This document shows, piece after piece, positions 1-19,717 of a stretch of 26,852 nucleotides of DNA; position 1 is the stretch's first letter; the number at the start of each line of letters is the position of its first letter. Both the position numbers and the translations under genes were made by a program. The notes below the pieces were generated by a model, which saw only the letters and a program-made list of their open reading frames with translations, ran no database searches and was not told the DNA's origin. The stretch spans positions 1-26,852 of the forward strand of contig CAYSTR010000001.1 of NCBI GenBank assembly GCA_964433745.1, in the 5' to 3' direction. Source of the stretch: an uncultured Oscillospiraceae bacterium (GTDB lineage Bacteria; Bacillota; Clostridia; Oscillospirales; Ruminococcaceae).

Positions 1-55
1 GTACCGTAAACCGGTCATAATTTCAACAAATATTTAGTCCTATCGTGACATCACC
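1..55 (-). mobile_element. Possible IS terminus interrupting the AraC gene
   Basis: AraC similarity stops abruptly at GGTGATGTCACGATAGG (minus strand, starting at 55). This is one mismatch from the GGCnnTG end motif described for IS1595-family (ISPna2 group) elements. No transposase or second end is visible in the window. Confidence 0.25.
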
Positions 56-295
56 GTATTTCAAAGCAATGTCTATAATTTTCTCGCTACCGTTTTGAAT
101 GTCAAATACGGCTTGCGATAATCTTCTTCGGCGAATATACTCTGAAATAGACATTCCTGCCATAAATGAGAATATGCGTGAAAATTCGTATACTGAGCAA
201 CCAACAATCTTTGACAACGATTCATAATGAATTTGCTGTGTTAATCTTTCCTCAATATACCCGATTACATTATTCATACCTTTAAGCCAGTCCAT
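23..295 (-). pseudogene. AraC/Rob-like transcriptional regulator, C-terminally truncated (90 aa)
   Basis: MDWLKGMNNVIGYIEE...SEYIRRRRLSQA...IIDIALKYG is the N-terminal double-HTH of Firmicute AraC regulators. After KYG the expected Y(E/D)SP..F.RAF helix is replaced by DVTIGLNIC*. SD GGAGG lies 6 nt before the ATG at 295, so the ORF-track start at 376 is too long. Confidence 0.75.
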
Positions 296-537
296 CCAAT
301 CCCTCCTCTCAAGTATGATTATAAGCGAACGAAGAATATGTTTCTTTACATCTCTTGCTAAGAATGGATAGTTCAAGTTAATATAAAAAAACTAAATCTA
401 TTTTATATTAGCATCGCTGATTTTTTTCGACTCCCTCGTTGCGTGAGCATATACATTCAAGGTAGTATTCCTGTTGCTTGAAGTGATAGAGGAGATATAT
501 AAACAGCCAAACGACAAAATAACCCCAGAACCTCTCT

Positions 538-1689
538 TTACGATTCAAGCATTATTTCTTTTATAGATATGCTCTTTATCTTTTGAGCGTAGGTGTACAT
601 CACAAACTCATATACCACAATAAATGCTGCGAGAGAACCAAGCATAGCCGGAAAATCAAATTTATATACCGGAACACCTGCTACACCGTTAAACACAACA
701 TCAACCATAATCCTAAGTAATATGTATTGATATATTGTTCCTATTACAAAGCCTACATAAGAAATAGGACGATATCCGCCCAGAAGTGCTTTACTGCATT
801 CTTTTTGCGAATAACCAAATACTCTCATCATTGCAATAGTTTTCGTATTTCCTTTGATTACGGTTGTTATAGCAAGAAAAAGGGTTGTACTGGCTAGAAC
901 AATTCCAATTACCATAATCATTGCGCCCATCATAACACTTGATAACTCTTTCATACTAAATGACATTTGTGTCATTGATGAAAAGCAAAACGAGGCAAAG
1001 ATAATAAAAAACACAAGTGTCTTTTTGCTTTTCAAGGTATTCCTTTTTAAGTCATCTATAAACAGACCATCTTTATCTCTTTCCTTTTTATGCTTCTTTA
1101 TCTTAGATGTGGTCTGATAGCTGTCCTTTAATAACGAAAGTACAGGTCTTCCCAGTTTATAAAACGCATAGTAAATCGCAAGAATTGAAAAGACAATAGT
1201 CGGTACTATAACTAAATAAAGAAGTAATACTGGATTAAAATGCATTAAAACATCGGGCAAAACCTCACCCTCATTTTGAAGCTCGTAGAAGTAGGGCATC
1301 ATAAGAAAAGCTCCTAAAAATCCAATAACCGCTCCTATAAAAACACTTATTCCAAACACCCAGAAATTTTTAGCGATTGTTAGATTTGAATAACCCAATG
1401 CCTTTAGTATCCCTAGCTCTTTCTTATGCGTATCAATATAATGCTTTATATAAAATATCAGCATTATAACCGAAGTAATCAAGAGACATCCTCCGCTGAC
1501 CATACTCGTGACATTGGCGGAGGACACTTGTGCTTCGTATAATTTCATTGCCTGCTCGGATGTTATGGCTTGCTTTATTCCGACTATGTCAATGTTATAA
1601 TTTATAAAAAGTGTGCAAACAAACACCGCACAAAATGCAATTATCGAAATTCCAATAAGCCGGGACGCATCCTTTATACCTACAACCAT
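538..1689 (-). CDS. ABC transporter permease, FtsX/MacB-type
   Basis: Multiple TM segments and two FtsX-like motifs (KKELGILKALGYS and KTIAMMRVFGYS). Directly follows an ABC ATPase gene. Confidence 0.88.
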   Translation of the reverse strand: MVVGIKDASRLIGISIIAFCAVFVCTLFINYNIDIVGIKQAITSEQAMKLYEAQVSSANVTSMVSGGCLLITSVIMLIFYIKHYIDTHKKELGILKALGYSNLTIAKNFWVFGISVFIGAVIGFLGAFLMMPYFYELQNEGEVLPDVLMHFNPVLLLYLVIVPTIVFSILAIYYAFYKLGRPVLSLLKDSYQTTSKIKKHKKERDKDGLFIDDLKRNTLKSKKTLVFFIIFASFCFSSMTQMSFSMKELSSVMMGAMIMVIGIVLASTTLFLAITTVIKGNTKTIAMMRVFGYSQKECSKALLGGYRPISYVGFVIGTIYQYILLRIMVDVVFNGVAGVPVYKFDFPAMLGSLAAFIVVYEFVMYTYAQKIKSISIKEIMLES

Positions 1690-1693
1690 ACTA

Positions 1694-2386
1694 TCACCAA
1701 CCTATTTCATAAGCAGTCTTTTGTGTATTATTTGCAATAATTTCTGATATTTTCCCGCTGTTCATTTTAACGACGGTGCTCGCCATTTCCGCTATATTCA
1801 AGTTATGTGTTACCATAACAATAGTAAAACCGTACTCCTTTTGCAGCTTACAAATATAGTCAAGCACCTGTCTGCCGGTTTTTTCATCTAATGCTCCCGT
1901 AGGCTCGTCAAGAAATAATACCTTGGGATTTTTAGCAAGTGCTCTTGCAACAGAAACCCTTTGTTGCTCCCCACCGGAAAGCTCGCTTGGGTATTTATAA
2001 AGCTTTTCTTTAAGCCCAACCGCTTCAATAATCTCTCTATAATTTTTGTTCCCAGCTAAATCTGCACCCATCTTTACATTTTTGTCAACATTCATATCAG
2101 GCAGTAAATAGTATTGTTGAAAAATAAAACCAACCTTGACCTTTCGGAACTTTGCCAATTCATTGTCAGAGAGATTAACAATGTCTAGGTCATCATAAAA
2201 TATTTTACCCCTATCCGGATGTTCAAGCCCTGATATAATATTTAGAAGTGTAGATTTTCCACTGCCCGATGCTCCTAGGATGACAATAAAATCTCCATCC
2301 ACAATGCTAATATCAATTCCTTTTAAAACATCTATCTTGCTTTCGCCATAACCGTAGGACTTTTCAATACCGCTTGCATTAATCAT
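1694..2386 (-). CDS. ABC transporter ATP-binding protein (LolD/MacB-like)
   Basis: Walker [11 protein letters not shown]-loop GFIFQQY, signature LSGGEQQRV, Walker [13 protein letters not shown]-loop MVTHN. Confidence 0.96.
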
Positions 2387-2960
2387 TTTTGCTACCCGCT
2401 TTCATTTTTATTAAAAGACCAACTGCCACATCTGTTATCATTTCATCTATCTCAATCTTTTTAAAGCTGCACATTTTAGTAGCACATAAGCTTGCTATAC
2501 CATGAGTGTAAATCCATAAATGATGATATAACCTTTGCGCACAGGTATCATTAAGGTCGTACCTATCCTTAATTGACGATAGTATTTTTTCATAGTTCTC
2601 TTCAATGATTAGCAATATTGTGTCAATCATAGGAGTTTTACTTTGTTCTGCCATAAAAAGAATCTGAAACAGTTTGGGTTCATCTTCGGCAAAGCTTATA
2701 TAAGCCATGCCGACACCTTTAAAGGGATTTTCTTCTAGTAATCCCTTCTCTGTGTATTCACTATATAATGCCTTTGCGGATTTAACTACAGCTTGATTGA
2801 TTTCATCCATATTTTGAAAAACCGTAAATATAGGTCTAGCCGAGCTGCCGAGAGCTGCACCTAATGCTCTGGCAGTTAAACCCTCCAATCCGGTTAATCT
2901 AACAATATTTATAGCAGCTTCTATAATCTCTTCTTTTGAAAATTTAGCTTTTGGCGGCAT
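2379..2960 (-). CDS. TetR/AcrR family transcriptional regulator
   Basis: MPPKAKFSKEEIIEAA...GLEGLTARALGAALGSSARPIFTVF is a TetR HTH, with a C-terminal LWIYTHGIASL helix. Start is probably the ATG at 2960 (track gives 2981). Overlaps the ABC ATPase start by 8 nt. Confidence 0.92.
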   Translation of the reverse strand: MPPKAKFSKEEIIEAAINIVRLTGLEGLTARALGAALGSSARPIFTVFQNMDEINQAVVKSAKALYSEYTEKGLLEENPFKGVGMAYISFAEDEPKLFQILFMAEQSKTPMIDTILLIIEENYEKILSSIKDRYDLNDTCAQRLYHHLWIYTHGIASLCATKMCSFKKIEIDEMITDVAVGLLIKMKAGSKND

Positions 2961-2990
2961 AATTCTTCTCATTCTCCCCATATTAAATGG

Positions 2991-3012
2991 GTCGTTTTAA
3001 AACGACTGTTTT
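2991..3012. promoter_or_regulatory. Candidate TetR operator
   Basis: Perfect 16-bp palindrome GTCGTTTTAAAACGAC (2991-3006) overlapping a second dyad AAAAC-GACT-GTTTT (2999-3012), immediately downstream of the -10 box. Confidence 0.7.
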
Positions 3013-3051: not shown

Positions 3052-3108
3052 GCTAAAGAAACACATAGTGTATACGGTGATTAGCATACACTATGTGTTT
3101 CTTTTAGC
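3052..3108 (-). terminator. Intrinsic terminator after the dynamin genes
   Basis: Perfect 19-bp stem (3055-3073 / 3086-3104) with a 12-nt loop, extendable by 3 bp past a bulge. It is followed on the minus strand by a T-rich run, about 80 nt past the stop at 3185. Confidence 0.75.
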
Positions 3109-3184: not shown

Positions 3185-5305
3185 TTAAGCAATAGCTTCA
3201 AGCTGTTCAATGGTCTCGCATATACGGTTTTGCTCCTGTATCCTTGCTGCTAATAGCGTATCCAGAGAGGAGAGCTGTTCACGCTTTTCTGCTGTTATAT
3301 CCCTTGTAAGCCGTTCGCACATAGCGGCGGTGCGTGTCTTGAAGCTTTCGCCATATTGCAGAATCTCTGAAATAGACCTTGACATGAATCTGTCTATGAC
3401 GGATGCATAAGCTCCTTTAAACACCTCCATATCATAAACAGTATCTACATTTTCCGGGAAACGCTCTTTTAGCATATTAATAGCTTCATCGGCACTGTAC
3501 GACTTATCGGATGGGTTTAACGAAAGGCTTAGATTATAGAGCCTTTCCTCCAACATAGTAAATAATCCTTCCTGTTCCGAGATGAGGCCGTTATGTGACG
3601 TTATCGCAGTGTAGAGAGCATTTTTAAATTCAGACATATCACTAAACACCGAGAAAGCGCGGGTGTGTATGGACCTTGCCAATCCGGACAGATGCTCTAA
3701 ATCTAACACTACTTCATCTGCGCTGAAATAGTAGCTAATCTGCTCGGTCTGTTCGGTTTCATATCTTATTTTCCCCCATGTCCACGGTTTATAGAATACC
3801 GAATCATGTATCAGCTTTACCTGTGATGTTATCTCTGCTTTCGGCAGTTTTTTTGCCTCACGGTATTGTTTTCGCAGTGCATCAAGTTCACTGCGAGCCA
3901 TGTCCAGCTGCTGTTCTAGGGGCTTTAGAAATTCCGATACTGCTTCGGTCACATTTTCTGCCAATCGTGCGATGGGGACAGTAAGCGCACGCCTGTCCCG
4001 CTTTAGTACAGAGGTGTCTAAGGAGTCAAGCTTCAATCTAAGCTCGTCGCATATGTTATTAAGCTGTAATCTGACATCATCCTTAATAAGTATAATAAAT
4101 TCGGAAGCCTTATTTTCCAATAGTGAATCTTTCATCTCGACTAGCTGTGCAAACATTCCGGTTATTTTATCAAACCCCGATATCTCATTTATTAGCTCAT
4201 CGTTTGCGGTATTAACGCTGAATAGAGCATCCATAATAATTTTTTCAGATTCGGTTCTCTCCTCCTCTTTTTTACAGGAGATTCTATCTATCATCGCAGA
4301 TACAAACATTGGTGAGCGGCAGCTGTCCAATGCGGACATGAAAGCGGGCGGGTGCTGCTTTCCCGCCAAGGATGACAGCCGCTTGTCGGCACAATCTGCC
4401 GCGTAGGCACTAAGCCTGCGTTTAACCTGTTTAATCGTCTTAGTTATATCGGCATTTTCATATGACGCATCTATAAGCGCAGAATCAAACTGGCTGGCAA
4501 CAAGACAGAGCCTGCTAACACCCTTACGCGGCAGAAGATCGGTCAGCAGCGACATGTCTGTTTCATCTAGAAAAGCGGTACTCTTGCTTAGAAAAAATGC
4601 GGCATCGCACGTTTCAATAAAGGCGCGTGTCTTTCCCGAACGAAATCCAGCATAATCGTTTAATCCGGGAGTGTCAACCACTACAATATCCTTTAGTACA
4701 GGAAGATTTAGATATATGCTCACCTCTTTGACTAATGGAGCATCGCTTCCCTCATCATCCACATATCGGGACAGCAGCTCAGACAGCTCTGTATAATCCC
4801 CAAAAGGAATAGTCATAAGACAAGCTCGTTCCGTTTCCGCCGGAATATAGCTTGTCTTTTCGATACGCCGCAATATCTGTCCCGCAAGCCGGGATGGTGC
4901 AAACCTCTCCCCTACCTCCGACAAAGCCTTCAGCGATTTAATATCCTCACGCGTAAACAAACTGACCTCCAACCTGTTTTCACAGGCAAAGCATATACGT
5001 GTGGGTACAGCCGTTTTGGGAGAATAATCGCTGGGAAGAACATTTTTGCCTCCGAACAGCAGTCTATTTAAGAAAAAGGACTTTCCCGCTTTCACCTGAC
5101 CTATTACCGCAAGATTAAATCGTCTCTCTATGCCGAAAAAGTCCTCTGTCTTTTCCCTTATTGCCGCCGCCATCAACGAAAGCCGCGCCGGTTCTATGCA
5201 ATCTGCATAGGGTAAGAGAGCCTCACCCGTCTTTGACAGTCGTGATACTATGTCGTTTATCTGTCTTAGAAGCGTGTCAGTCTTTGGAAACAGCACACAG
5301 CTCAT
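3185..5305 (-). CDS. Bacterial dynamin-like GTPase (706 aa)
   Basis: G1 GQVKAGKS, G2 region PKTAVPT, G3 DTPG, G4 variant ASQFD, long helical C-terminal stalk with an aromatic FYKPWTWG tip. Confidence 0.88.
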   Translation of the reverse strand: MSCVLFPKTDTLLRQINDIVSRLSKTGEALLPYADCIEPARLSLMAAAIREKTEDFFGIERRFNLAVIGQVKAGKSFFLNRLLFGGKNVLPSDYSPKTAVPTRICFACENRLEVSLFTREDIKSLKALSEVGERFAPSRLAGQILRRIEKTSYIPAETERACLMTIPFGDYTELSELLSRYVDDEGSDAPLVKEVSIYLNLPVLKDIVVVDTPGLNDYAGFRSGKTRAFIETCDAAFFLSKSTAFLDETDMSLLTDLLPRKGVSRLCLVASQFDSALIDASYENADITKTIKQVKRRLSAYAADCADKRLSSLAGKQHPPAFMSALDSCRSPMFVSAMIDRISCKKEEERTESEKIIMDALFSVNTANDELINEISGFDKITGMFAQLVEMKDSLLENKASEFIILIKDDVRLQLNNICDELRLKLDSLDTSVLKRDRRALTVPIARLAENVTEAVSEFLKPLEQQLDMARSELDALRKQYREAKKLPKAEITSQVKLIHDSVFYKPWTWGKIRYETEQTEQISYYFSADEVVLDLEHLSGLARSIHTRAFSVFSDMSEFKNALYTAITSHNGLISEQEGLFTMLEERLYNLSLSLNPSDKSYSADEAINMLKERFPENVDTVYDMEVFKGAYASVIDRFMSRSISEILQYGESFKTRTAAMCERLTRDITAEKREQLSSLDTLLAARIQEQNRICETIEQLEAIA

Positions 5306-6758
5306 CCTTTATTTTCTTTAATTTCTCTATGTTTTTAAGTTTTTCTTCAATATCCGACCGACACAATGTTCCGTTATCCGTACTGGCTTTTCTCGTCTCA
5401 TTCAGTGCATGTTCACGAGAGTTCCTAGCTGCCTGCAAGCTGTCTCCTAATGTGCGTTCAAGGTTTTTTGATATTCGTTTAATAAGAGCCTCTGCCGCAT
5501 CGGGCACATAGGTTAAAAGATCAGACGAGTTTTTATTTGCCCGCATATTCCGAAGCTCATCCGCTCCTGACAATATAGCTAGCTCTTCGTTAAACGACCG
5601 TTCGCGTTCTTTTATCATTTCATCGCTTAAAAATTCATCTAAGCCGTAAAGCTTTAACACATCAAGCACTAATATTATACGTCTCTCCAGAACAGGCCAT
5701 AACTTATGCCTTAACGAAGAAACAAGCGTCCCCACCGCTAATTCATAGCATAGACTGCCTGTGTCCTGTAACGACATAAAATCCTCGATATTCTTCCGAT
5801 TATCTCTTAGCACATCTGCCACGAACTGCCTTGCATGTGTAATACATTCGGTTATAGCAGCAGTGTACCGACGATCGTTTTCGCTTAATGTCTTGTTTAA
5901 TGCGTCCAGCTCTGCTCTCTGGCTTAGTACACGCATCTTTATTTTATCAAGCGACAATAACCCCAGCTCAACATCCTTTGAAAGCTCGGAGGCCAAGAAG
6001 CTGCACCGCTCGGTTAATATGTCTGTTTTTTTCTTTTCACGTAGTCTTTCTGCACGGTTTCGGCATCTCACCAGAAAAGCGTCAGCACTTAAAACACCTT
6101 GCCCATGCTTTAGAGACGTTACGATTATATCCTCCGGGGTGAAGTGTAAACATTCTTTTATCTGCGTTTTAAGTCTCGATGCGGAAGTCTTTGCAATTTC
6201 GGCAGGTATCTTATCACATTTGTTGACCACTGCCAGAACCGGTATCTCCGAAACCTTTAGCTCTTCACACAACGTTATAGTCGTCTCACGCAGGACAGGT
6301 TCATCAGCAGAAAAAACAAGTACCGCCGCATTCACCCTGCCTATTAAAGAAGACGATACACCGGTTATATCCCCCGGCAGCTCTACTATCCTAATCCCGG
6401 ACAATTTAACATGATTATACTCAATAGCTACCGCTTTAATCCCGCTTAGACTGAAATGCTCGTCAAACAAGCTGTCTATCCCGATAGTTCTCTCGCTCAC
6501 CGCGAAAAAAAGATGGGCGCACCTGTTTTCCGAGTACTTGAGTGTCGTAGGTACACATATTCGGGGAGTAAGTCCTGTTGGCAGCAAACGGATACCCAGT
6601 ACACTATTAATAAGTGTACTCTTTCCGGTGTTTCGCATCCCGATAACAGCTACAGTAAGAAATTCTTCGTCTGCCGATTTTATGTGTACATGCATATCAT
6701 CGTTATTAATAGCGTGATATGTGCTTATGTCATCGAGTATTTTTATTATTTCATTCAT
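5277..6758 (-). CDS. Bacterial dynamin-like protein (493 aa), degenerate GTPase motifs
   Basis: G1 GMRNTGKST, LLPTGLTP, G3 ELPG (D to E), G4 NKCD, then a coiled-coil/helical region. Overlaps the next dynamin gene by 29 nt. Confidence 0.82.
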   Translation of the reverse strand: MNEIIKILDDISTYHAINNDDMHVHIKSADEEFLTVAVIGMRNTGKSTLINSVLGIRLLPTGLTPRICVPTTLKYSENRCAHLFFAVSERTIGIDSLFDEHFSLSGIKAVAIEYNHVKLSGIRIVELPGDITGVSSSLIGRVNAAVLVFSADEPVLRETTITLCEELKVSEIPVLAVVNKCDKIPAEIAKTSASRLKTQIKECLHFTPEDIIVTSLKHGQGVLSADAFLVRCRNRAERLREKKKTDILTERCSFLASELSKDVELGLLSLDKIKMRVLSQRAELDALNKTLSENDRRYTAAITECITHARQFVADVLRDNRKNIEDFMSLQDTGSLCYELAVGTLVSSLRHKLWPVLERRIILVLDVLKLYGLDEFLSDEMIKERERSFNEELAILSGADELRNMRANKNSSDLLTYVPDAAEALIKRISKNLERTLGDSLQAARNSREHALNETRKASTDNGTLCRSDIEEKLKNIEKLKKIKDELCAVSKD

Positions 6759-6760
6759 AA

Positions 6761-7879
6761 CTACCCTAGTATAATGTGTCCGCCTATCTCACCGTCACCA
6801 ATACCTGCCGTCTTAGGAGCGGACAGAGCAGAGTTTACATCGAGATAGCAGTGTGTATCTAAATGATTGTTCTTTCGCAGGATAACAATCTTAAACCGAG
6901 CATCCATCGGACAGTAGGCTTCGATAAGCCGTTCTATCGTCTTGTTGCTGACGCTCATCTCTGATTCACATAAATTAAGTATAACACAAAATGAGCCTGC
7001 GGTCTCACCGTAAAGCCGTCTGTATGTATTCTGTGAGGTTACGGAATATCGTGGATTCAGCCACTCAAAATGCTCTATTATCAGCGGACATACACCTGTA
7101 GCCAGCTTAATTATCTCCTCCAGTGCCTTTTTTGTCCCCTTTGCACCTTGGAATAAATCAATATGCATGGCTATATATCTAAGAGATTCCGGAGAGAATA
7201 AACCGCCGAAACTGTCAAGTCCCAACCAGCCAGCCAGTTCACTCACATAGGTATCGGGTGTTGTTCTTATGTCAAGAAAGCGTACAATATCGTCCACTCT
7301 TTGCTCTGTATCCATGTACATTGACTGAAACACAGATACGAATCTGTCAAAAAAATTGTTTCCGTGATAGACCTCCGGAAAGTACTCGGTAAACGGAATA
7401 AAGGGAAGAATTAGCTGCAATCCCTCAATAGTACCGCCGCATTCCCCCATTGGATGTAGAATTAGACAGATATATACATACCGTCCCCTCACACCCTGCA
7501 ATAAAATATCCTCCGCCGCCTTGCGGTTTACCGAACCGGGAAGCGCCGACAGAAGTGCGGCTTTATTTTCAAGGCTAATACCTGTATCGTGAAGGTAATC
7601 ACCTATCTCGCACACTGCACCGTCTATTAACGCCTCGGATGAGTCGGACGCCGCTACTATACATTCAAGCTGTATACCATCAAGCTTCGCATCAATTGTA
7701 AGCCGCCCAAAGGTGCAGTCCTGCTCACCGGTATCAAATACCGGTGCAATATACACCGCTGTTTTATTTCCTTTGTATTCAAGCCGACAATCTTTAGTTA
7801 TTGCAAGCTCCTCGGTATATCCCTTACATAGGTTCAGACCTATAAAATTTACCGCTTTATGTTTCATCCATAGACCCAC
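6761..7879 (-). CDS. Baseplate wedge protein with P2 gpI-like (phage tail protein) domain
   Basis: FLPEIY-like YFPEVYH...FFDRFVSVFQ...FLDIRTTP..YVSELAGWLG...KGTKKALEEIIKL. Follows the J-like genes. Start may be the ATG at 7867. Confidence 0.8.
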   Translation of the reverse strand: MGLWMKHKAVNFIGLNLCKGYTEELAITKDCRLEYKGNKTAVYIAPVFDTGEQDCTFGRLTIDAKLDGIQLECIVAASDSSEALIDGAVCEIGDYLHDTGISLENKAALLSALPGSVNRKAAEDILLQGVRGRYVYICLILHPMGECGGTIEGLQLILPFIPFTEYFPEVYHGNNFFDRFVSVFQSMYMDTEQRVDDIVRFLDIRTTPDTYVSELAGWLGLDSFGGLFSPESLRYIAMHIDLFQGAKGTKKALEEIIKLATGVCPLIIEHFEWLNPRYSVTSQNTYRRLYGETAGSFCVILNLCESEMSVSNKTIERLIEAYCPMDARFKIVILRKNNHLDTHCYLDVNSALSAPKTAGIGDGEIGGHIILG

Positions 7880-7882: not shown

Positions 7883-9994
7883 TCAAACAAATTCTATCTC
7901 GGTCGCAAGCAGATAGCTTATAGTATCAGGTGCTAACAGTACATCCCCCTGTGCATTGGTTTTTGCCCCTACACCCGGGCATATAAGATGAAGATCAGAT
8001 ACCTTACTGACACATTCTAGCATCTCCAGCCGGGAGAAAAGCATTCCATACGATATCCTGCCGCCGAACTGTCCGCTTGCCACATGGTCGATAAGCTCTC
8101 TTATAAGCTCATTTACGTGGTCTCTTATCTCCTGCGAATTAACCGTCAACACAATACGTCCGCTCACCGTGATACCTGCATACCGAACAGACACTACCCG
8201 CAGTTCTACGGTCAAAAGCCTATATGCTTCCAGATACCAGGTAATACGTTTTTTATAAGCATCAGACAGATATGTCCGAGCCGCTGTGTCGGAGCAAGGC
8301 TTAACAGCTATAATTACCGCACCCGAAGCTATATCTCCGTCATACCATCCCAAAAATTCCCGCTCGCTTATGACGTTTACGCTGTCTATTCTAAGTCCCG
8401 GAGTATCCTTAGTAATTTTTATATAGTCCTCGGGTGTCACAACACGTCTCGGAATGAGAATTTTTTCCTCAATAAGCATTTCCAGTTCGTTTGAAATTTT
8501 AGGACATACCCCTCCATATGCGGGTTTTGGGTTTGTTATTGTAATGTCAGTTAGGTTATTGCTTTTAAATCGATTAATCTGACCGGCACGAACGTTTCCG
8601 CCGTCCAAAAGTGAGGTTTTTAGTCTAAGAGCGGCAACAACCTGACACCTGTCCGGCTGTACACCATGCTTACCGTCACCGAACACTATATGTCCGTTAT
8701 CCCGGTCTAGATAAAACACCCTCTCTTGATAGTCCGCCGCCGCAAGATCATCACATTTATCCCACAGCTGGAAGAAAATGCGTCCGTTTCTCTCGCTGTA
8801 AAGCCCCAGTCTTATATCTATAACATTCTCCGTTTTAAGCTCCAGTCGATCTTCTGCATACCCTGTAGTGTACCCCAGTGCTATTTCATCAGTATAATCT
8901 CTGTTTGTGAGCGTTACAACAAGCTTTTGCCCTGTCTTTGGTACAACACCGAATCTATCCTCATCAAAAACGACTATCCTCTGCCACTCATAAGCACCCG
9001 GAATCACATCGCACAGAGATGTCTCGTCCGGCTCAAAGCGAAACCATTCGCAAAATCCGTCATTTTCCTCTACCGCAACGCATATGAGCGTGTCCGCTCC
9101 GATATAATCGTTAAGCGACAGACTGCCGCTGCCGTCATATGTATATTCGATTACCTCTGAGATTGTATCGGTCTGCACTGCCTTGATATAATCGGGATAT
9201 ATCCAGGAGAGCTGAACAGGAGCATCTGCCGTGCCTTTCTTGGGGATAATTCTAAGATAGTGTCCGGCTGTCAGCAGCGGATTGGTATCAAGGATTTCTG
9301 TGCCATTATCTAGGAAAAGCTCGATAAAGCCCTCACGCAGAAACCCGCCGGTACCATCATTAAGAAGTACTGCCTCCCGCCATTCTGTTCCGTTAAAGTA
9401 TTCATATTTATATGCTGTAAGAAAAAAGTCATCGTAAAAATCGGTACGTCCGCGGCTTTTTGCTATATCGGCAAAAAACTTCACATTGCCCGACATACTG
9501 TGTAAAAAGCAGAGATATAGCTCCGAACTCCCCCCCGCATCAAAGTCCGAGAGAACAGCATATGAATCCTCCGCTTTTATGACAGGTGTAATATCTAAAA
9601 GCTGATTATTGCTCATATAATAAACGGCGGTAAGCTCATTTGTCTGACCGATATATGCCTCATCCAACTCGAATACGACATCCCCCGCAAAAAGCTTTGT
9701 TCCGCGCCCTAACGCTGTGTGTCGGCTTGAACAAGGCACAACATACGCTAAAGCCGCTTCAAGCTTAGGAGTAATCCCCAATAGGCTAAGATAGCCCATG
9801 CGGTGCTTCTCCCCTGTTGCATCAATATAGAAGTTCAGCATATCTATAAGCCAGGTCAGGACTTGAATGGTGGTAATCCCCGGATCGTGCAGATTAAAAT
9901 CTGTCCACTCGGAGGTAAGCGTAGGGATTTTGTCCCTTACCGCTTCAAACAGCTGTTCAAAGTTTTTATCGTCCAGTGTCGGTACGCGCAACAT
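7883..9994 (-). CDS. Baseplate assembly protein, gpJ/gp6-like (Afp11/Pvc11 type)
   Basis: LDDKNFEQL...EWTDFNLHDPGITTI N-terminus, FGDGKHG, GGNVRAGQI, RRVVTPEDY. Confidence 0.9.
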   Translation of the reverse strand: MLRVPTLDDKNFEQLFEAVRDKIPTLTSEWTDFNLHDPGITTIQVLTWLIDMLNFYIDATGEKHRMGYLSLLGITPKLEAALAYVVPCSSRHTALGRGTKLFAGDVVFELDEAYIGQTNELTAVYYMSNNQLLDITPVIKAEDSYAVLSDFDAGGSSELYLCFLHSMSGNVKFFADIAKSRGRTDFYDDFFLTAYKYEYFNGTEWREAVLLNDGTGGFLREGFIELFLDNGTEILDTNPLLTAGHYLRIIPKKGTADAPVQLSWIYPDYIKAVQTDTISEVIEYTYDGSGSLSLNDYIGADTLICVAVEENDGFCEWFRFEPDETSLCDVIPGAYEWQRIVVFDEDRFGVVPKTGQKLVVTLTNRDYTDEIALGYTTGYAEDRLELKTENVIDIRLGLYSERNGRIFFQLWDKCDDLAAADYQERVFYLDRDNGHIVFGDGKHGVQPDRCQVVAALRLKTSLLDGGNVRAGQINRFKSNNLTDITITNPKPAYGGVCPKISNELEMLIEEKILIPRRVVTPEDYIKITKDTPGLRIDSVNVISEREFLGWYDGDIASGAVIIAVKPCSDTAARTYLSDAYKKRITWYLEAYRLLTVELRVVSVRYAGITVSGRIVLTVNSQEIRDHVNELIRELIDHVASGQFGGRISYGMLFSRLEMLECVSKVSDLHLICPGVGAKTNAQGDVLLAPDTISYLLATEIEFV

Positions 9995-9997
9995 AGC

Positions 9998-12853
9998 TTA
10001 ATCCTCCACATACTGGCAGTATACAATATGCTCGCCGTTTACTGCCATTGCAAACGGTGACGTAATATGCCGGGATAGATTTTCGTCCACGGCATACTCG
10101 CGGTCGTCGTATTCGGCAGTCAAGCTTACACGGCTCACCATGGTTTCCGGCAGAGCAAGCTTTAAAAATGCCACAAGCTCGGCGGGAGAGGGCAGCACAC
10201 CAATATCCCATCCCCTACCCTCGAATCCGCCGGTCAGCGGATCGATAAACCGCGCTATTTCATTCATGCATTGCTTCTGTGTATCGTAGGCCGCCTCCAT
10301 TCGCTCACAAATCAGCCAGATACGTGCTGACATGCGCACAAAACGAGGCTGTGTCAATATAAGTGTTTTTCCCGCCGGTACAAGCCCGCTGCATGATATA
10401 AGACGTTTTCTTATATCCTCTTTCAACGACGAGAAGATGTGTCCGCCCTTCTCGTATTCGTCAATCAATACCGCAATAGTGAGTGCATCCTCACGCTGGT
10501 TGCCTAAAAGGTCTACACCGTTCATACACTTAATACGCTGTACCCCATAGGTCACCTGTGCAATAATGTCAAAATAATCCTCGCGTGTGACCGCACGAAG
10601 CCGCGTTCTTAGCATGTTGGATATAATCTGTGCCGATGTCTCTTCATTAAATCCGTCATATCCGCCGTATGCCGGAACAGGGTTATCCACCGACGATAGG
10701 AACTTAATAGAATCTGCGGTTGTGTTAATCGACCCCGATGGTACATTTGCCGCCTGTCCATGGTAGCTTTGATACTCCACCTTAATGGACGGTCCGTTTG
10801 TGTTTACCGGATAGACAGAGAATACATTCTTAGGGAACGAGATAATACCATACGGAAGATCAGCATCGTATACCCTCCCCATCTGATTTACATGCTGCGC
10901 CCTATTCCACCTGACCCAGTTTTCCGCATCGCCGCCCTGCTCGTTTATATATACATTTAACGATATAAGCCCTCCAGAGCTCAGATGAATACTGTTGTCG
11001 GTCTCACCAGTCAGGAAGAACAGCTCTGTCTGTGTACGCACATTCTCCGCCTTTGCCATGTTAGTGTATATTCCCGTAATGAGGGGCAGACGGTCGCTTA
11101 ACTGCTCATGACGGCGGCTCTTTATGCGAATCCAGTAAAGCTCACGCCCGAACAGTTCGCATCTTGCAATATCCTTTCCTATCATCATAAGCATAACACC
11201 CGAGCTTAACATACCCTTTGTGCCGTCCATAACCTTTAGCGGAACAAATTCAGTCTTTGTCATGTATTCCAAAAGATAATCTACAGGTAGGTCAGCACTG
11301 TTATCTATGCTTAGATAGAGTGATGTGGGCAGTCCCCACGGATTTTCATCAAAACCTATGTAAATGGAGGTATTATCCTGTTCGCGGGTATAAAAGGGCA
11401 CTATACTGCGTCGATTAGAAAGCAGCTCGGAAACATCCTGTCTCTCGATATTGTTGAGCGTAACCACACAGTCCGGGGTGAGCGGGGACTCATTATAGTT
11501 GTAGGAGAAGCGAAGGTTCTCAATAACCGGACAGTACTGGCGGGACGGAATCTGGTACAGCTTATCGGCGCGCATGAGCCTAAAACGCAGACGAGGCTGT
11601 CCCCCGGCATAGCTGTAGTCTATTATATCGTTGGGAACTGTAAACGGAATGGTCAGCTCCCCATTCTCCGAGCCGTTGAATATATGTGTGAGATGCTCTT
11701 CATTGGATAGACGTTTCCATCCTGTTTTGCTTAGATATTCTATAAGCACTGAATCGGCATGTATCTCTTGAACTATCGGCTTGGGTATAGTCGGTGCCTG
11801 TTTTAGCACAACCTTGTATTCGGTCTCGGTCTCGTACTCGGGCAGCAGCTGTTCAAACACCTCAAAGCTAAGGGAAAAGCTCACAGCCGCATTAGCACCT
11901 GTACGTGCTAAAAGTCCCGCCTGCTCTATCTCACAGGATGCGTAAATCTCCATAGGAAGCCCGAACGGTTTAAAATGCCCCACATTTTGTGTAACCCCCG
12001 AACAGACAACCATCTCCGGCAGTAATCCTGTGTCCGAAAGCTTGACCTTTAATCCGTCTATATGTATGGGGGCAGGTCGCCGAGACCGTATGGCGAGCTG
12101 ACAGCAGTCGCGCCCGGCTAGAGGTTCTTTAAATGAGTTAAAATGTTCTTTAGAGAGAATTATCTCGTCACCCTGCCTATTAACCGCATCAAAAGCTATG
12201 AATCCAGTTTCCTCTAATACAAAATATTCTACTTCATTAGAGCAGAGAAAGCTCAGTGTATTCGCTTTTTCTTCCTCAGTCGAAGCAGATATTAAAATAG
12301 ACAGACTAAGGTTCACTATATAATCAAGACTGCACTCAAATCCGATAAGGAGTGAATGCTCCTCCAGATTATCCTCTCCACTCATAAAAGCACGGAACCG
12401 GCAATTTGAGATGTCTCCGTCCTCTTCCGCTGAATATTGCTTTGACAGTATTCCTCGTGTACCGTCGGCGGTAAACACTGCGGCGGGTGCTGCATTTGTC
12501 ACTGTAAGTCCGTGTACCGTCTCAAAAACAATGGTTTCGTCACCCTCACCTGATGCTAAAAGTCTTGTTCCCTTGGGTACATGAAACGGCTCGGGTAGTC
12601 CCTCTACCGGAGTAAAACGTACAAAGCTCTTGGCACATTCCACCGGTTCAATCTTAAAACGGTCAAACATATTCAAGTATTGAATCTTGTGTTTATGAAG
12701 CGCCCTGTCATATCGTCCAAGACTGTCTTTAAGCAAATCGGCGAATAAAAGCGCAATAACCGAACCGGCATCGGGATTTTTTTCATTAAAGCTCCATTCG
12801 GGCACGTATGCCTTGGCGAGCGTCTTTAGCTTTTCTATTATCGCATCACGCAT
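9998..12853 (-). CDS. Large baseplate J-like protein (Afp11/12 type)
   Basis: LAKAYVPEW...PDAGSVIALLF N-terminus, VPKGTRL, C-terminal GGYDG...RAVTREDY and FIDPLTGG..G.GW.IG.LP motifs. Confidence 0.88.
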   Translation of the reverse strand: MRDAIIEKLKTLAKAYVPEWSFNEKNPDAGSVIALLFADLLKDSLGRYDRALHKHKIQYLNMFDRFKIEPVECAKSFVRFTPVEGLPEPFHVPKGTRLLASGEGDETIVFETVHGLTVTNAAPAAVFTADGTRGILSKQYSAEEDGDISNCRFRAFMSGEDNLEEHSLLIGFECSLDYIVNLSLSILISASTEEEKANTLSFLCSNEVEYFVLEETGFIAFDAVNRQGDEIILSKEHFNSFKEPLAGRDCCQLAIRSRRPAPIHIDGLKVKLSDTGLLPEMVVCSGVTQNVGHFKPFGLPMEIYASCEIEQAGLLARTGANAAVSFSLSFEVFEQLLPEYETETEYKVVLKQAPTIPKPIVQEIHADSVLIEYLSKTGWKRLSNEEHLTHIFNGSENGELTIPFTVPNDIIDYSYAGGQPRLRFRLMRADKLYQIPSRQYCPVIENLRFSYNYNESPLTPDCVVTLNNIERQDVSELLSNRRSIVPFYTREQDNTSIYIGFDENPWGLPTSLYLSIDNSADLPVDYLLEYMTKTEFVPLKVMDGTKGMLSSGVMLMMIGKDIARCELFGRELYWIRIKSRRHEQLSDRLPLITGIYTNMAKAENVRTQTELFFLTGETDNSIHLSSGGLISLNVYINEQGGDAENWVRWNRAQHVNQMGRVYDADLPYGIISFPKNVFSVYPVNTNGPSIKVEYQSYHGQAANVPSGSINTTADSIKFLSSVDNPVPAYGGYDGFNEETSAQIISNMLRTRLRAVTREDYFDIIAQVTYGVQRIKCMNGVDLLGNQREDALTIAVLIDEYEKGGHIFSSLKEDIRKRLISCSGLVPAGKTLILTQPRFVRMSARIWLICERMEAAYDTQKQCMNEIARFIDPLTGGFEGRGWDIGVLPSPAELVAFLKLALPETMVSRVSLTAEYDDREYAVDENLSRHITSPFAMAVNGEHIVYCQYVED

Positions 12854-12898
12854 GACTGACTGTCCTCCGGTTCTTTATGATAAAGTTAAAAATGATAA

Positions 12899-13309
12899 TC
12901 ATCCCCCGCTGCCCTCATACAGATAGTAGGGAAATACAAGGTTACCCGGATTGTTTGTCGCTCTCACGGTATAGCTGACATTGATGCTCACACGGCCGTT
13001 CATAAGCTCTGACATATCAATATCTGCATCAACCTCGATAATACGCGGCTCCCACCTGATAAGCGCCGATACGACCTCGTTTTGCAAGAGTGTCATGGAT
13101 GCCGCGTCCGGCAGCTCAAACACAAAGTCGGAGAGATTGCTGCCAAAATCGGGAAGCATCACCCGCTCGTTTTTTCGTGTCATTAATATAAGGTAGATGG
13201 ACTGTTTTATGTCCTCCTCGTCACTGCACATCCTAAACCGTCCAGTTACAGGATCGACCGACGGCGGGAAGTTAAGCCCTAATCCCAGAAATTCGTGTGT
13301 CCGTTCCAA
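12899..13309 (-). CDS. GPW/gp25 family baseplate wedge / sheath initiator (Afp9 type)
   Basis: FLGLGLNFPP...EDIKQSIYLILMTRKNERVMLPDFG...WEPRI...NLVFPYYL. Confidence 0.93.
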   Translation of the reverse strand: MERTHEFLGLGLNFPPSVDPVTGRFRMCSDEEDIKQSIYLILMTRKNERVMLPDFGSNLSDFVFELPDAASMTLLQNEVVSALIRWEPRIIEVDADIDMSELMNGRVSINVSYTVRATNNPGNLVFPYYLYEGSGG

Positions 13310-13320
13310 TACCCTACCCC

Positions 13321-14097
13321 CTAGTTTATCTTAACCATACCGCCGGACAGCTCGCTCATAGCTGCACCCTTGAGAGTTAACTTCTGTTTGCCATCAACTG
13401 TCAGCAGCCCACCCTCTACAGTAAACATGTTGTTGCTCTTTATGCTTGCGGTCTGCCCCGCTTCTATGGACAGTCTGTCACACTTTATGGTGAGAGCGCC
13501 GCCCTTTCCGTCCATTTCTATCGAGCACTTACCAGACTTTAAAGATAGCTTAGTGTCTGCCGTCACCTCTACTGCATTTTTCTTGGCATCCAGCTTTATT
13601 ACGTTCTTTCCGTTTTTATCTGTTATAGTCACTGTGTCATTACTGTCATCGATGGCGGCTTTTAATCCGTGGGGAAGGGTTATCTCTGCTTTTTCCTTGT
13701 CCTTTTCATCGGATAGGTTCATCTCAATGCCGCCCTTTGTTTTTAGACTGCGTTTAAGGTTCTTTGGGTCGTTGGTTTTTCCGGGAAGCCCCGCTCCTGC
13801 TGGGAAAAAGCTACCCATAATAAACGGATTTCGCATATCACTGCCCAAAAAGCCTATCAGCACAATGTCACCCACCTCAGGGACAATGAAACGTCCATGT
13901 TCCTTTCCGGCATAGGGTGTGAGAACCGGTATCCACTGGGATATACGCTGACCCTGTGCCCATGCGGTAAACTCTGCCTTGACCATGCCGGGGAAATCCT
14001 TGTTGCCGTTTTCCGACACTAAGCCTAAAACAAACTGACCCGCATTTTGCGAATATGCAGAAATACCTGTATCAATAAGTTCGGAAAGTCCATTCAT
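13321..14097 (-). CDS. Baseplate spike, gpV/gp5-like (C-terminal half of VgrG/Afp8)
   Basis: OB-fold motif VPEVGDIVLIGFLGSDMRNPFIMGS, then beta-helix-like repeats ending GGMVKIN. Confidence 0.9.
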   Translation of the reverse strand: MNGLSELIDTGISAYSQNAGQFVLGLVSENGNKDFPGMVKAEFTAWAQGQRISQWIPVLTPYAGKEHGRFIVPEVGDIVLIGFLGSDMRNPFIMGSFFPAGAGLPGKTNDPKNLKRSLKTKGGIEMNLSDEKDKEKAEITLPHGLKAAIDDSNDTVTITDKNGKNVIKLDAKKNAVEVTADTKLSLKSGKCSIEMDGKGGALTIKCDRLSIEAGQTASIKSNNMFTVEGGLLTVDGKQKLTLKGAAMSELSGGMVKIN

Positions 14098-15203
14098 AAC
14101 CCATTAATCCTCGCTTCAAACGCAGAATAGAATCCAGTATCATCATAGGTATGCCGCACATTCACGACATAACATTTCCGGCTTAGATCCTCTCCCATTT
14201 CCTTTAACTCAATAGTTCGTCCCGGACATATTTCTGGAAGCCCTATGCACCGGCATGTGACTATACCGAAGCTGCTCTCAATCTCGCGCATTATAACCTT
14301 TGCACGTTCTGTGGCTAGCTGTGCGCTCACCGCATACGGATCGAATACATTCTTTACCGATCCCGAAAACATTTTTGAGGCTGTCTGCCCTTTAGAGTAT
14401 TTGCCGGATAGCTTTGCCTCGCCGCTTATAGCCTTATTGTTAGCCGGATCAATCCCATTAACTACCGTCTTTTCATACAAACCGCTTCCTCTAAGCGAAA
14501 GACCTGCAGAGGTAATCCCGCCTGCATTGGGCGACAATGTAAGGTAGGCAGATGATGAAGCCGGTCTCTTTCTGAAATACACCTTGCCCTGTATGATGAA
14601 AAACTCATAACCCATATATTTAGTCCAATGGGTGATAAACTGGAAATCACTCTCGGCGGCAGCAGACACAAATTCGAGCTTTTCGTTCACCTTTTCGATG
14701 GATTTTCCCGATATGTACGAGCTAAAAGGCGGCGGCTCGATTAGCTCCTTTATCATCTCGTCTGCACTCTTACCCACAAACAGTCTAAGCCTGCGCTGTT
14801 TTATAAGCAGGCTCTTGGCATCCAGACACTCCACATGAACATAGGGAGCGGAGTATTGATCCCATATATATTCGACCTCGGCAACAAGACCGCTAAAAAC
14901 CTCCACTGTCTCAATATATCCCAGTTCAAGGCTAATTTTAGCACCCAGCTGCATGAGCGGAACAGCACTCTTCTTAGAAAAAGCAGACTTGGACGGGTCG
15001 TATGCGCACATTATATCAAAGCTGCAACCAGAGGCTTGACTTTCTACAGTCAGCGTCACCTCGACGTTCTGTACCACCGCCGCACACTTCTCAATAATCT
15101 CTGTACCGTCTACTTTTATGCGTAAGGCGGGAGCGGTAAACCCGCGGTATTTTCTTTTTAGTGCGGTAAACGACACGCTCTGCGTCATTAAATCCATACG
15201 CAT
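14094..15203 (-). CDS. Baseplate hub, gpD/gp27-like (N-terminal half of VgrG/Afp8)
   Basis: LGAKISLELGY...FSG.V, ESDFQFI...GYEFFII.GKVYFRK, IGLPEICPGRTIEL...YVVNVRHTYD..GF. 4-nt overlap with the spike gene. Confidence 0.88.
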   Translation of the reverse strand: MRMDLMTQSVSFTALKRKYRGFTAPALRIKVDGTEIIEKCAAVVQNVEVTLTVESQASGCSFDIMCAYDPSKSAFSKKSAVPLMQLGAKISLELGYIETVEVFSGLVAEVEYIWDQYSAPYVHVECLDAKSLLIKQRRLRLFVGKSADEMIKELIEPPPFSSYISGKSIEKVNEKLEFVSAAAESDFQFITHWTKYMGYEFFIIQGKVYFRKRPASSSAYLTLSPNAGGITSAGLSLRGSGLYEKTVVNGIDPANNKAISGEAKLSGKYSKGQTASKMFSGSVKNVFDPYAVSAQLATERAKVIMREIESSFGIVTCRCIGLPEICPGRTIELKEMGEDLSRKCYVVNVRHTYDDTGFYSAFEARINGL

Positions 15204-15226
15204 CTCCCATGCTCGTCCGCGTCACT

Positions 15227-16021
15227 CTATCTTATGGAGGGAAGCTTTAATCGTAAAACCTGCTCCATCATGCGCGGATTTAGTATATTGTTTGCCTTGG
15301 CTATAATTTTCCAGTAGGCGGGATCGCCGTATTCCTCGTTTGCCAGTGTGAAAATCGAGTCTCCGTACCGCAGCATTCGGTGTTTTGTACGGTCGGGGGA
15401 CTCATTGGGGTACTCGCTACGGTTTTGCACGTACTCTACTTCCTCACCGACAATGGATAGTGACACCTTAGCACGTACCGGCGTTCCATCCCGGTCAAAC
15501 ATTGTATAATCGGCAGATGAGGACACAAGCTTACCGGCAAAGTTTAGATGCCTGCCCCATATGAACCCAATCATAGGGGGTTCATGCTCCTCCGGTTTAT
15601 ATTTTAAGAGACCGATAATGTCCTCAAACAGCTTATTTACCTTGACATCTGCTTTGGGTGTACTTTCTTGATTCATATCCCAGCTGGGATACTTTTTATT
15701 TTTAAGAGAAGTGTATCCTCCGGTGATAAGCTTTGTAAGCTCCATATTTCCGGAATTTACTATATTCTGGGAGGCTTTAAGCTCGTTATAGCTGTCAAAA
15801 TACAGTGTAACCGATAATGTGGCGTTCTCTCCGTATACGGTTTGTAAAAGCTTGGGGTCGGTGTCCTTTGCAAGCCCCCTCATCTGCGAAAGCTGTGTGG
15901 AATGTGCTATACTGTACTCCGACGGATTGAACTGTACGGGATACTTTTTATCTACCTTCATGCTGTCGCCGGATTTTTTATAGACGACGACAACCGCCTT
16001 TTCAAGCTTACCGCTTAACAT
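15227..16021 (-). CDS. CIS tube-initiator protein with C-terminal LysM-like domain (Afp7/Pvc7 type)
   Basis: VQFNPSEYS, TLSVTLYFDS, PP..GFIWG...F.G, YTMFDRDGTPVRAKV, and LysM-like GDSIFTLANEEYGDPAYWKIIAKANNILNP. Confidence 0.9.
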   Translation of the reverse strand: MLSGKLEKAVVVVYKKSGDSMKVDKKYPVQFNPSEYSIAHSTQLSQMRGLAKDTDPKLLQTVYGENATLSVTLYFDSYNELKASQNIVNSGNMELTKLITGGYTSLKNKKYPSWDMNQESTPKADVKVNKLFEDIIGLLKYKPEEHEPPMIGFIWGRHLNFAGKLVSSSADYTMFDRDGTPVRAKVSLSIVGEEVEYVQNRSEYPNESPDRTKHRMLRYGDSIFTLANEEYGDPAYWKIIAKANNILNPRMMEQVLRLKLPSIR

Positions 16022-18586: not shown

Positions 18587-18608
18587 CCCCCTTTTTCATA
18601 TCGTTTAA

Positions 18609-19058: not shown

Positions 19059-19098
19059 AAATACTATTCCTCTTTAAGACATAATCCATTTTCTAGTG

Positions 19099-19302
19099 TC
19101 AGATTTCAAACGGATTCGGAGGTTCATTGCTCATATGCTTGTGAATGGCTGAGATTTCGCCGCAAAAACGGCGGCGGGTCTTGTGATCCAGCGTCATAAC
19201 CGTATCAAACGGCCAATGATAATAGTATGAGATAAAGGACATTTCCTTATATAACTCATTCTCTGGGTATACGGTTATTCCGCTGTCGTAAAATTTATGG
19301 GT
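19099..19302 (-). CDS. Unannotated -1-frame ORF, DUF6760 / P2 gpE'-like tail chaperone extension
   Basis: Hand translation: (KF)YDSGITVYPENELYKEMSFISYYYHWPFDTVMTLDHKTRRRFCGEISAIHKHMSNEPPNPFEI*. It has the YP...LY.E...Y.HW motif, no properly spaced SD and start codon, and overlaps the chaperone 3' end in the -1 frame. Confidence 0.8.
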   Translation of the reverse strand, partial: THKFYDSGITVYPENELYKEMSFISYYYHWPFDTVMTLDHKTRRRFCGEISAIHKHMSNEPPNPFEI

Positions 19303-19649: not shown

Positions 19650-19682
19650 AAAATTTCTCCTAAGTTATTTTATCTGCCTTTT

Positions 19683-19706: not shown

Positions 19707-19717
19707 TAGGCTTTCGG

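Follow-up and report, generated by a model that had tools for sequence, protein, structure and literature searches.

The stretch of DNA considered here, called the window below, is an entire contig of 26,852 bp from a metagenome-assembled genome (3.47 Mb in 715 contigs, 93% complete) of an uncultured Oscillospiraceae bacterium, and it carries the genes of a contractile injection system (CIS) followed by those of two dynamin-like GTPases, named Dyn1 and Dyn2. Every gene of the window lies on the minus strand. Read from 26.8 kb downwards, the order is a HAMP-domain protein, a MORN-repeat protein, a Pvc16-type cap, an unassigned protein of 233 amino acids (aa), a DUF4280 tip protein, the sheath, a tube protein, an unassigned 124-aa protein, a second tube protein, an 854-aa protein in the position of a tape measure, CIS_tube, a gpD hub, a VgrG-like spike, gp25, two TIGR02243 baseplate proteins (951 and 703 aa) and, down to 3.2 kb, a 372-aa Cis12-like (gpI-like) protein, Dyn1 and Dyn2. 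The features that matter are the following.

5277-6758, minus strand: Dyn1, 493 aa, a BDLP-class dynamin-like GTPase according to Pfam, AlphaFold2 (AF2), Foldseek, alignment and hydropathy
3185-5305, minus strand: Dyn2, a BDLP-class dynamin-like GTPase, 706 aa in its longest open reading frame (ORF), probably 703 aa from GTG 5296
6761-7879, minus strand: Cis12-like (P2 gpI-like) baseplate protein, 372 aa, the final structural gene (NCBIfam, junction, orthologues)
3056-3103, minus strand: intrinsic-terminator-like hairpin with a 20-bp stem and a T-rich tail, about 80 nucleotides (nt) past the Dyn2 stop, closing the operon
7883-23761, minus strand: core CIS structural genes, from the Pvc16 cap to the two TIGR02243 baseplate proteins (Pfam, NCBIfam)
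23773-26852, minus strand: the two proteins with which the operon opens, one with MORN repeats and one with a HAMP domain (Pfam, tblastn)

Judged by its domains, the cluster qualifies as a CIS gene cluster of the extracellular (eCIS), Afp or PVC-like kind: sheath, tube, CIS_tube, gpD, Phage_base_V, gp25, TIGR02243, TIGR02242 and Pvc16_N were all found above the cut-offs of Pfam or NCBIfam. The protein that precedes the dynamins matches CIS12_fam of NCBIfam (2.4e-20, partial) and TIGR02242 (53.7 bits, above cut-off), its homologues show a weak Tail_P2_I match, and its orthologues, 35-46% identical, are present in all related clusters. A first-pass annotation of this DNA had called it a gpI-like last baseplate gene, which on these matches is a fair description.

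The junctions between the last three genes are tight. On the minus strand, the end of the Cis12-like gene and the beginning of Dyn1 read ...ctagggTAGttATGaat, that is TAG-tt-ATG: the stop codon occupies 6761-6763, a gap of 2 nt follows, and the ATG of Dyn1 stands at 6758, with a weak AGGG 5 nt on its 5' side. The first-pass annotation had described exactly this arrangement and had added that it leaves no space for a promoter. Both statements are borne out, as a gap of 2 nt is too short for a promoter and promoter-like matches in the region are no commoner than in shuffled sequences (15 vs 11.5 +/- 3.6). Its overlap of 29 nt between the two dynamin genes needs amending. The Dyn1/Dyn2 junction reads aaaggATGagctgtGTGctg...gacTGA, with the Dyn1 stop at 5277-5279, and the longest ORF of Dyn2, from ATG 5305, does overlap Dyn1 by 29 nt. 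An AAAGGA box covers part of that ATG and lies 8 nt before an in-frame GTG at 5296; the database gene call for Dyn2 is 703 aa long, and the GTG start matches the N-terminal consensus of the family, MxxxxTxxxxRQ. This spacing, gene call and consensus favour GTG 5296, so that the overlap is probably 20 nt. Past Dyn2, the terminator hairpin folds with a minimum free energy of -40.9 kcal/mol (z = -5.8 against shuffles). Taking together the 2-nt gap, the overlap, a terminator that stands only after Dyn2 and the lack of a standout promoter, we can understand the dynamin pair, as far as the layout of the DNA tells, as the last two genes of the CIS operon, sharing its transcript in the source genome.

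That both proteins are tandem dynamin-like GTPases, as had been proposed, was confirmed by several routes. The Dynamin_N profile of Pfam, with a gathering cut-off of 27 bits, matches Dyn2 at 51.6 bits and Dyn1 at 34.4 bits. AF2 models have a mean predicted local distance difference test (pLDDT) score of 86.3 for Dyn2 and 83.4 for Dyn1, and both place a helical neck and trunk behind the GTPase domain, in a fold resembling that of solved dynamin-like proteins (DLPs). When these models were compared with the PDB by Foldseek, the leading matches were SynDLP, BDLP, Cj-DLP1/2, IniA and the mitofusins for Dyn2, and BDLP, IniA and Cj-DLP for Dyn1 (E 7.6e-14 to 1e-11); all the leaders are dynamin-like and the alignments span 560-860 columns, most of the chain, with low TM-scores (0.25-0.5) that are expected since dynamins are hinged proteins. 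In sequence, the nearest solved DLPs, BDLP and Cj-DLP, match around the P-loop alone, and the top sequence matches of Dyn1 are EngA/Der GTPases. By domain profile and predicted fold, Dyn1 and Dyn2 are true dynamin-like GTPases of the BDLP/mitofusin class, and no further true dynamin was found in the source genome.

The motifs of the two proteins differ somewhat in their conservation. Dyn2 displays the P-loop GQVKAGKSF, a G2 threonine, the G3 motif DTPG and the G4 motif SQFD; its key G1, G3 and G4 residues, together with W510, are invariant in 33 homologues. Between its long helices stands a beta-hairpin (residues 487-527) whose tip loop bears a PWTWGK motif, conserved in both of the clades described below, and this loop is a candidate lipid-binding element of the modelled protein. 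Dyn1 has an intact P-loop, GMRNTGKST, and a G4 motif NKCD; its sole departure from the motif consensus is found in G3, around residue 126, which reads ELPG with glutamate in place of aspartate.

It is in comparison with relatives that the association with the CIS takes its full meaning. A word-based homology search with Dyn1 yielded three weak relatives, and Dyn1 homologues were for this reason taken from the ORF lying 5' of Dyn2 in the loci that were fetched. Relatives of Dyn2 number hundreds, at 25-35% identity, and nearly all belong to Bacillota. Three loci examined among the nearest ones have CIS genes beside the pair, in two layouts. Among the best 80 loci from GTDB species representatives, 11 are CIS-adjacent, meaning that CIS genes lie at most 10 kb from the Dyn2 locus; the tree adds the window and L004, which makes 13. 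That tree, an unrooted maximum-likelihood tree of 80 Dyn2 proteins, contains a branch supported at 100 by the Shimodaira-Hasegawa-like approximate likelihood-ratio test (SH-aLRT), which splits clade A, with 17 rows, from clade B, with 63 rows. All 13 CIS-adjacent rows fall in clade A, together with four others (L014, L024, L054 and L067). In clade B, made up of Lachnospiraceae, Selenomonadaceae, Bacilli (including Caryophanaceae) and further groups, none of the 63 is CIS-adjacent.

The four clade-A rows that remain all have an orthologue of the baseplate protein J703 in their genome (E 1e-122 to 1e-173). The CIS contig of L014 stops exactly at Cis12. The contig of L067 is cut right after Dyn2, and a 99%-identical metagenome contig (L182) has the CIS adjoining. 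Two cultured members of clade A keep the two apart: in Ligaoa zhengdingensis NSJ-31 the CIS is on a different contig from the pair, and in Anaerotruncus massiliensis AT3 the CIS baseplate gene lies about 32 kb from the pair on one scaffold. Eleven clade-B genomes were tested in the same way; ten had no baseplate protein and one had a distant CIS, at 25% identity. A scan of metagenome contigs gave a similar picture, with ten clade-A loci, of which eight are CIS-adjacent, one has the layout seen in Anaerotruncus and the last is a fragment of 3.5 kb, and with no CIS-adjacent locus among 70 of clade B; several of these clade-A loci duplicate GTDB genomes and are not all new cases. The first-pass annotation had remarked that its proposal would suffer if the close relatives of the pair occurred mostly away from CIS. 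What is found is that all 17 genomes with an intact clade-A pair have the CIS type, 13 of them within 10 kb of the pair, only the distant clade B being CIS-free.

The link is preserved through changes in gene arrangement. In the first arrangement, that of the window and most relatives, Cis12, Dyn1 and Dyn2 follow each other on one strand; in the second, Dyn1 and Dyn2 are convergent with a series made of an AAA+ ATPase gene, an eCIS_core gene and Cis12; in the third, Dyn2 is directly convergent with Cis12. The tight coupling of Dyn1 to the baseplate gene which had been proposed thus holds in the window, with its gap of 2 nt, and does not extend to the relatives, where the gap is about 37-170 nt or the pair is convergent or elsewhere in the genome. 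Of 300 sampled genomes belonging to the family, 11 have the CIS type, 7 have a strong Dyn2 match and 5 have both, when about 0.3 would be expected by chance. Pairwise distances of Dyn2 and J703 correlate closely (r = 0.97, Mantel p about 5e-4, n = 16), which shows long co-inheritance, with a contribution of shared species history.

Two genomes hold broken copies of the pair. In the first (G220, 99% complete; L099:10245-12873), Dyn1 is frameshifted just before DTPG and Dyn2 is cut to 333 aa, past G4; in the second (L082:1384-4332, G694), Dyn2, 66% identical to that of the CIS-linked locus L018, stops at about 430 aa. Neither genome gave a J703 match or a match to the 70%-conserved sheath, and the positive controls matched. 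An intact clade-A pair thus goes with a CIS in the genome in 17 cases out of 17, and a broken pair with no CIS found in 2 out of 2; no significance is claimed for these tallies because the genomes are related and the numbers small.

These observations make it highly probable, from comparative genomics, that the dynamin pair is functionally linked to the CIS. They support the tie that the first-pass annotation had suggested and do not distinguish between the four roles it had listed (release of the particle, protection of the producer membrane, injected cargo, coupling to anti-phage defence). It might be supposed, on the contrary, that there is no functional tie and that a general membrane-stress or Eleos-like anti-phage pair has simply been co-inherited beside the CIS. 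Most relatives indeed have no CIS nearby (63 of 80 and 70 of 80 loci in the two collections), co-inheritance within a family can imitate functional linkage, and PADLOC finds a weak LeoA match (1.8e-7, 28.6 bits, over 96 residues of a 559-position profile), with a second one at 1.8e-3 (15.4 bits, 30 residues). Against this, the linkage survives the three arrangements and persists down to 26-31% Dyn2 identity; such DLPs are rare in the family, as the strong matches in 7 of 300 genomes indicate, and they track the CIS; both broken copies sit in genomes where no CIS was found; the window leaves no room for a separate promoter; and no LeoBC partner was detected, the scores being far under the family thresholds. 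We consider mere co-inheritance quite unlikely.

The pair is not a constant companion of its CIS. It was not found in 6 of the 11 genomes of the family that have the close CIS type, and since about half of the CIS-type genomes are thus without a found pair, it has to be seen as facultative. As read from these genomes, the clade of the pair is a dedicated and at the same time facultative accessory module of one CIS lineage. What stands past Cis12 in its place is varied. In G180 and G027, which are two of those six, and in Ligaoa, the slot holds a protein of about 180 aa followed by a larger one of 650-900 aa, rich in Ala, Lys and Gly, or by two such paralogues; the coordinates of slot proteins in dynamin-less relatives are L091:5873-12021 (G180), L093:3271-9438 (G027) and L095:3312-5258 (G009). 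The Ala/Lys/Gly-rich proteins have no Pfam match, and their family was not found in the source genome or in the fetched parts of the arrangement A/B dynamin-CIS loci. Possible roles for them are those of an alternative accessory and of an effector module akin to a tape measure, for which Sle1 offers a comparison (PMC13277306). Other genomes have an eCIS_core-domain protein and an AAA+ ATPase after Cis12. Among the large proteins that take the place of the dynamins, Pfam recognised eCIS_core in one, a weak CBM_X2 in another and otherwise nothing. The statement that the dynamins sit where tail fibre or effector genes normally do is therefore roughly right, inasmuch as dynamin-less relatives hold unrelated large proteins, an eCIS_core protein or an AAA+ ATPase at this place. 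A co-directional subgroup (L106:12265-14829, in G059, and L035/L058) was also seen to carry, between Dyn2 and the AAA+ ATPase, a protein of 854 aa that has hydrophobic segments at its ends and matches CBM_X2 weakly.

A swappable end slot of this kind invites the idea that the dynamins are themselves a payload, effectors delivered to the membrane of the target or of the producer. The variability past Cis12, with the Ala/Lys/Gly-rich family in dynamin-less loci, would fit it; the loss of a hydrophobic segment, described below, would suit a protein that has to be loaded; and there is a precedent for large membrane-directed cargo, since in the intracellular CIS of Streptomyces large cargo, Sle1/Sle2, is translocated to membranes (PMC13277306). 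Several features speak otherwise. In the sister clade the DLPs form an ordinary pair of the cell, and both cultured carriers encode the pair at a distance from the CIS cluster. Known eCIS cargo uses a leader as its loading signal, and both N-termini are here predicted, with confidence, to be folded helices rather than a disordered leader. An eCIS_core-domain partner was not found in the window or the genome with the single query used. We regard delivery of the pair as very unlikely.

Comparison of the two clades points to an evolutionary change in Dyn1. In Dyn1 of clade B, some 30 residues in a row are strongly hydrophobic (Kyte-Doolittle mean of 2.1-2.5 over 19 residues); this stretch maps to the tip of the helical trunk in the model, and it is at the trunk tip that the lipid paddle of BDLP1 sits (PMC6104087). 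No such stretch was found in clade-A Dyn1, where the maximal 19-residue value is 1.74, and 1.47 in the window; the position of the trunk tip is occupied by a variable polar insert, or, in the window, shows a deletion. The likely ancestor of the CIS-linked pair is a general membrane-anchored pair of Bacillota, from which the GTPase motifs and the Trp-rich tip of Dyn2 would have been kept and the hydrophobic hairpin of Dyn1 lost; the tree being unrooted, this direction of change is an inference. Two further observations concern clade B. Its Dyn1 (e.g. L027:662-2302 and L046:8279-9916) has a G4 motif TK(C/S)(N/S/K/H)R, without the aspartate of guanine specificity, and at many other loci of this clade Dyn2 is immediately preceded by a third gene (about 330-430 aa), a Dyn1-like gene lying 4-7 kb upstream.

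A protein that has lost its own membrane segment might have become an adaptor. Dyn1, without paddle, would dock on the periphery of the baseplate or on the MORN or HAMP protein, the Trp-tipped hairpin of Dyn2 would bind lipid, and GTP would gate firing, the pair acting as a membrane anchor in the manner of CisA, to which it is unrelated. The variable insert or deletion at the trunk tip of clade-A Dyn1 goes in this direction, as do the start of Dyn1 2 nt past the outermost baseplate gene, the lack of any recognised fibre gene among those of the cluster, and the conservation of membrane proteins at the head of the operon. There is also a precedent, for in Streptomyces coelicolor the non-structural membrane adaptor CisA, which is not part of the particle, is required for firing of the cytoplasmic CIS (PMC12237407). 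Yet the six CIS genomes in which the pair was not found imply that anchoring cannot generally need it, and the MORN and HAMP proteins, in every cluster, are likelier candidates. Seven full clusters keep the order from HAMP, MORN and cap to Cis12, with or without dynamins after it, and tblastn found the MORN and HAMP proteins at 40-51% identity in G228, G059, G200, G180, G027, G009 and G301. These two proteins are core parts of the CIS lineage and candidate membrane adaptors or sensors. That the dynamins should fill this role is rather unlikely.

The pair might also serve the release of particles, driving membrane fission, vesiculation or controlled rupture so as to free them from their Gram-positive producer. 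Pfam and NCBIfam revealed neither a holin nor an endolysin domain in the proteins of the cluster, and the end of the operon is a frequent place of late functions in phage-tail-like clusters. The LeoABC dynamins of Escherichia coli have been tied to vesicle-associated toxin release. Membrane remodelling would nevertheless leave the thick Gram-positive peptidoglycan unbreached, half of the lineage is without the pair, and lysis genes could be elsewhere in a genome of 715 contigs. A role in release appears distinctly unlikely.

We are led to consider what a pair of dynamins may do for a machine that punctures membranes. That it is linked to the CIS and also acts on membranes within the producing cell is, taken jointly, a proposition to which we grant slightly less than even odds. 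The specific mechanism that we prefer, with a probability of roughly 0.35, is a GTP-driven sealing or remodelling of the producer membrane at the place where the CIS fires or docks. Dyn1 and Dyn2 would assemble in the manner of Cj-DLP1/2, paired bacterial DLPs being known to form heterotypic 2:2 tetramers that bind and tether membranes (PMC6104087). The assembled pair would be recruited to the cytoplasmic membrane of the producer at the site of firing or docking, where GTP would power the tethering, fusion or sealing of the bilayer once it is punctured. The outcome would be a repair or containment comparable to that attributed to DynA of Bacillus subtilis at membranes damaged by phage or nisin, protecting the cell from a machine whose insult is puncture. 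DynA, which repairs membranes and delays lysis by phage, gathers at membranes upon exposure to pore formers and phages, and cells devoid of DynA lysed efficiently after phage infection; this response to damage is the closest functional analogy to puncture by a CIS. A bolder formulation, with the pair as an integral part of the way in which a Gram-positive cell works such a machine across its own membrane, either as a GTP-driven device that closes the bilayer round or after the fired tube, allowing firing without killing of the producer, or as itself a payload delivered to membranes, is unlikely; in both versions dynamins would have a new job, and the CIS a new class of accessory or effector.

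A number of observations weigh against sealing or against the evidence brought in its favour. The absence of a found pair from 6 of 11 CIS genomes means that a repair function must be dispensable or otherwise supplied. Loss of the hydrophobic segment of Dyn1 poorly fits a classical membrane-inserting role. The G3 glutamate of Dyn1 in the window contrasts with aspartate (DMPG, DLPG or DTPG) in all 24 alignable homologues, and the window pair sits on a very long branch of the Dyn2 tree, with 2.67 changes per site; this copy is, by its branch length, evolving unusually fast, and on account of the branch and of the glutamate its activity may be altered. Prediction of a complex between the Cis12-like protein and Dyn1 scored 0.00, in two runs without controls that give no answer on binding. 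RNA evidence for co-transcription was sought, and the runs matching the window are DNA only, four in number, from a single animal-gut metagenome study. Kinship, finally, inflates every co-occurrence count given above.

It is useful to place the pair among systems already described. Among its closest structural kin are Cj-DLP1/Cj-DLP2 (5OWV/5OXF) and BDLP1 of Nostoc punctiforme (2J68/2J69), which share with it the layout of an operon with two unequal DLPs side by side, the GTPase with helical neck and trunk, structural E values of 1e-11 to 1e-14 and the best PDB sequence matches for Dyn2. Identity is no more than 13-16% in structural alignment, and the sequences match little beyond the P-loop; Dyn1 here has no hydrophobic paddle, the tip of Dyn2 is a beta-hairpin with a Trp-rich loop, and the Cj-DLP and BDLP1 pairs, unlike that of the window, are not known to be linked to a CIS. 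DynA is likewise a DLP of Bacillota with two cooperating GTPase units, and Dyn2 aligns to the second GTPase of its model, whereas DynA is a fused, two-headed protein and the window has two genes. DynA had been cited by the first-pass annotation as a known paired dynamin; assignment to the DynA equivalog was rejected, with separate genes instead of a fusion and a score of 37.7 bits for NF052648 against a cut-off of 1600. Another of the systems it had cited, Eleos/LeoABC, fares no better. The resemblance lies in the co-encoding of dynamin-family GTPases, in the weak LeoA match already mentioned and in a fold match to LeoA (4aur, E 1.5e-5), but the pair belongs to a CIS operon, not a defence island, and membership was rejected as the PADLOC LeoA matches are weak and partial and no LeoBC match was found.

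Likeness to CisA is of another order. Both are lineage-specific, non-structural accessories encoded with a Gram-positive CIS, and the logic is comparable, CisA being required at the membrane and not within the particle. CisA is however a bitopic membrane protein, without a GTPase and without homology to the dynamins, and it is conserved across Streptomyces clusters when the pair is present in about half of its CIS lineage. As for the CIS proper, it shares with the PVC/Afp-type eCIS the gathering in one operon of sheath, tube, gp25, VgrG-like spike, Cis11/12-type baseplate and Pvc16-type cap, and differs from them by the lack of a recognised fibre or toxin gene or contiguous AAA+ ATPase in the window, by the HAMP/MORN head and by the dynamin pair at its end. 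A full-text literature search, with most subscription journals outside its coverage, found no description of an association of a dynamin pair with CIS, and, within the same coverage, no paper connecting DynA to CIS.

The novelty is twofold: a new accessory module in a CIS lineage, and, for a clade of dynamins, a new genomic and probably functional partner. Bacterial DLPs are widespread and few have a known cellular job; the CIS of Gram-positive gut anaerobes are almost unstudied; and the question of how a CIS deals with the membrane of its producer, at docking, firing and release, and with the survival of the cell, has received in CisA of Streptomyces only a first answer. A dynamin clade found intact only with one CIS lineage, and broken where no CIS was found, gives both fields a link that can be put to the test, with two cultured carriers at hand (Ligaoa zhengdingensis NSJ-31 and Anaerotruncus massiliensis AT3) and the CIS loci devoid of the pair as a natural comparison. 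If the pair seals the holes made by the CIS, it would represent a new type of self-protection, for puncturing machines that carry no toxin; if it anchors the CIS or is delivered by it, it would be a new class of accessory or effector.

There remain some features of the cluster and its surroundings. A domain search of the window proteins found neither an Afp15-type AAA+ ATPase nor a tail fibre, and no toxin gene was recognised in the window CIS cluster. In relatives the AAA+ ATPase lies a few kb past the cluster. In the source genome, a CIS-type AAA+ ATPase gene is cut by the end of another contig (C288:3946-4293); the C-terminal 116 aa that it still encodes share 64% identity with the ATPase whose gene adjoins the CIS in L004, and it is because of this fragment that the missing ATPase is probably encoded elsewhere in the fragmented genome.

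The close CIS type was seen only in the family of the source genome, the named relatives being labelled Oscillospiraceae, and in an order-level sample of 400 genomes from 30 families (E <= 1e-60) it appeared in the genome of the window alone. The composition of the DNA led us to reject a horizontal island: the GC content of the CIS (0.454) and of the dynamins (0.43-0.45) equals the genome mean (0.46), so that the cluster is not a compositional island. The outlier is the flank at 1-3000, with genes for a TetR regulator, an ABC ATPase, an FtsX permease and an HTH_18 protein, where the GC content falls to 0.357.

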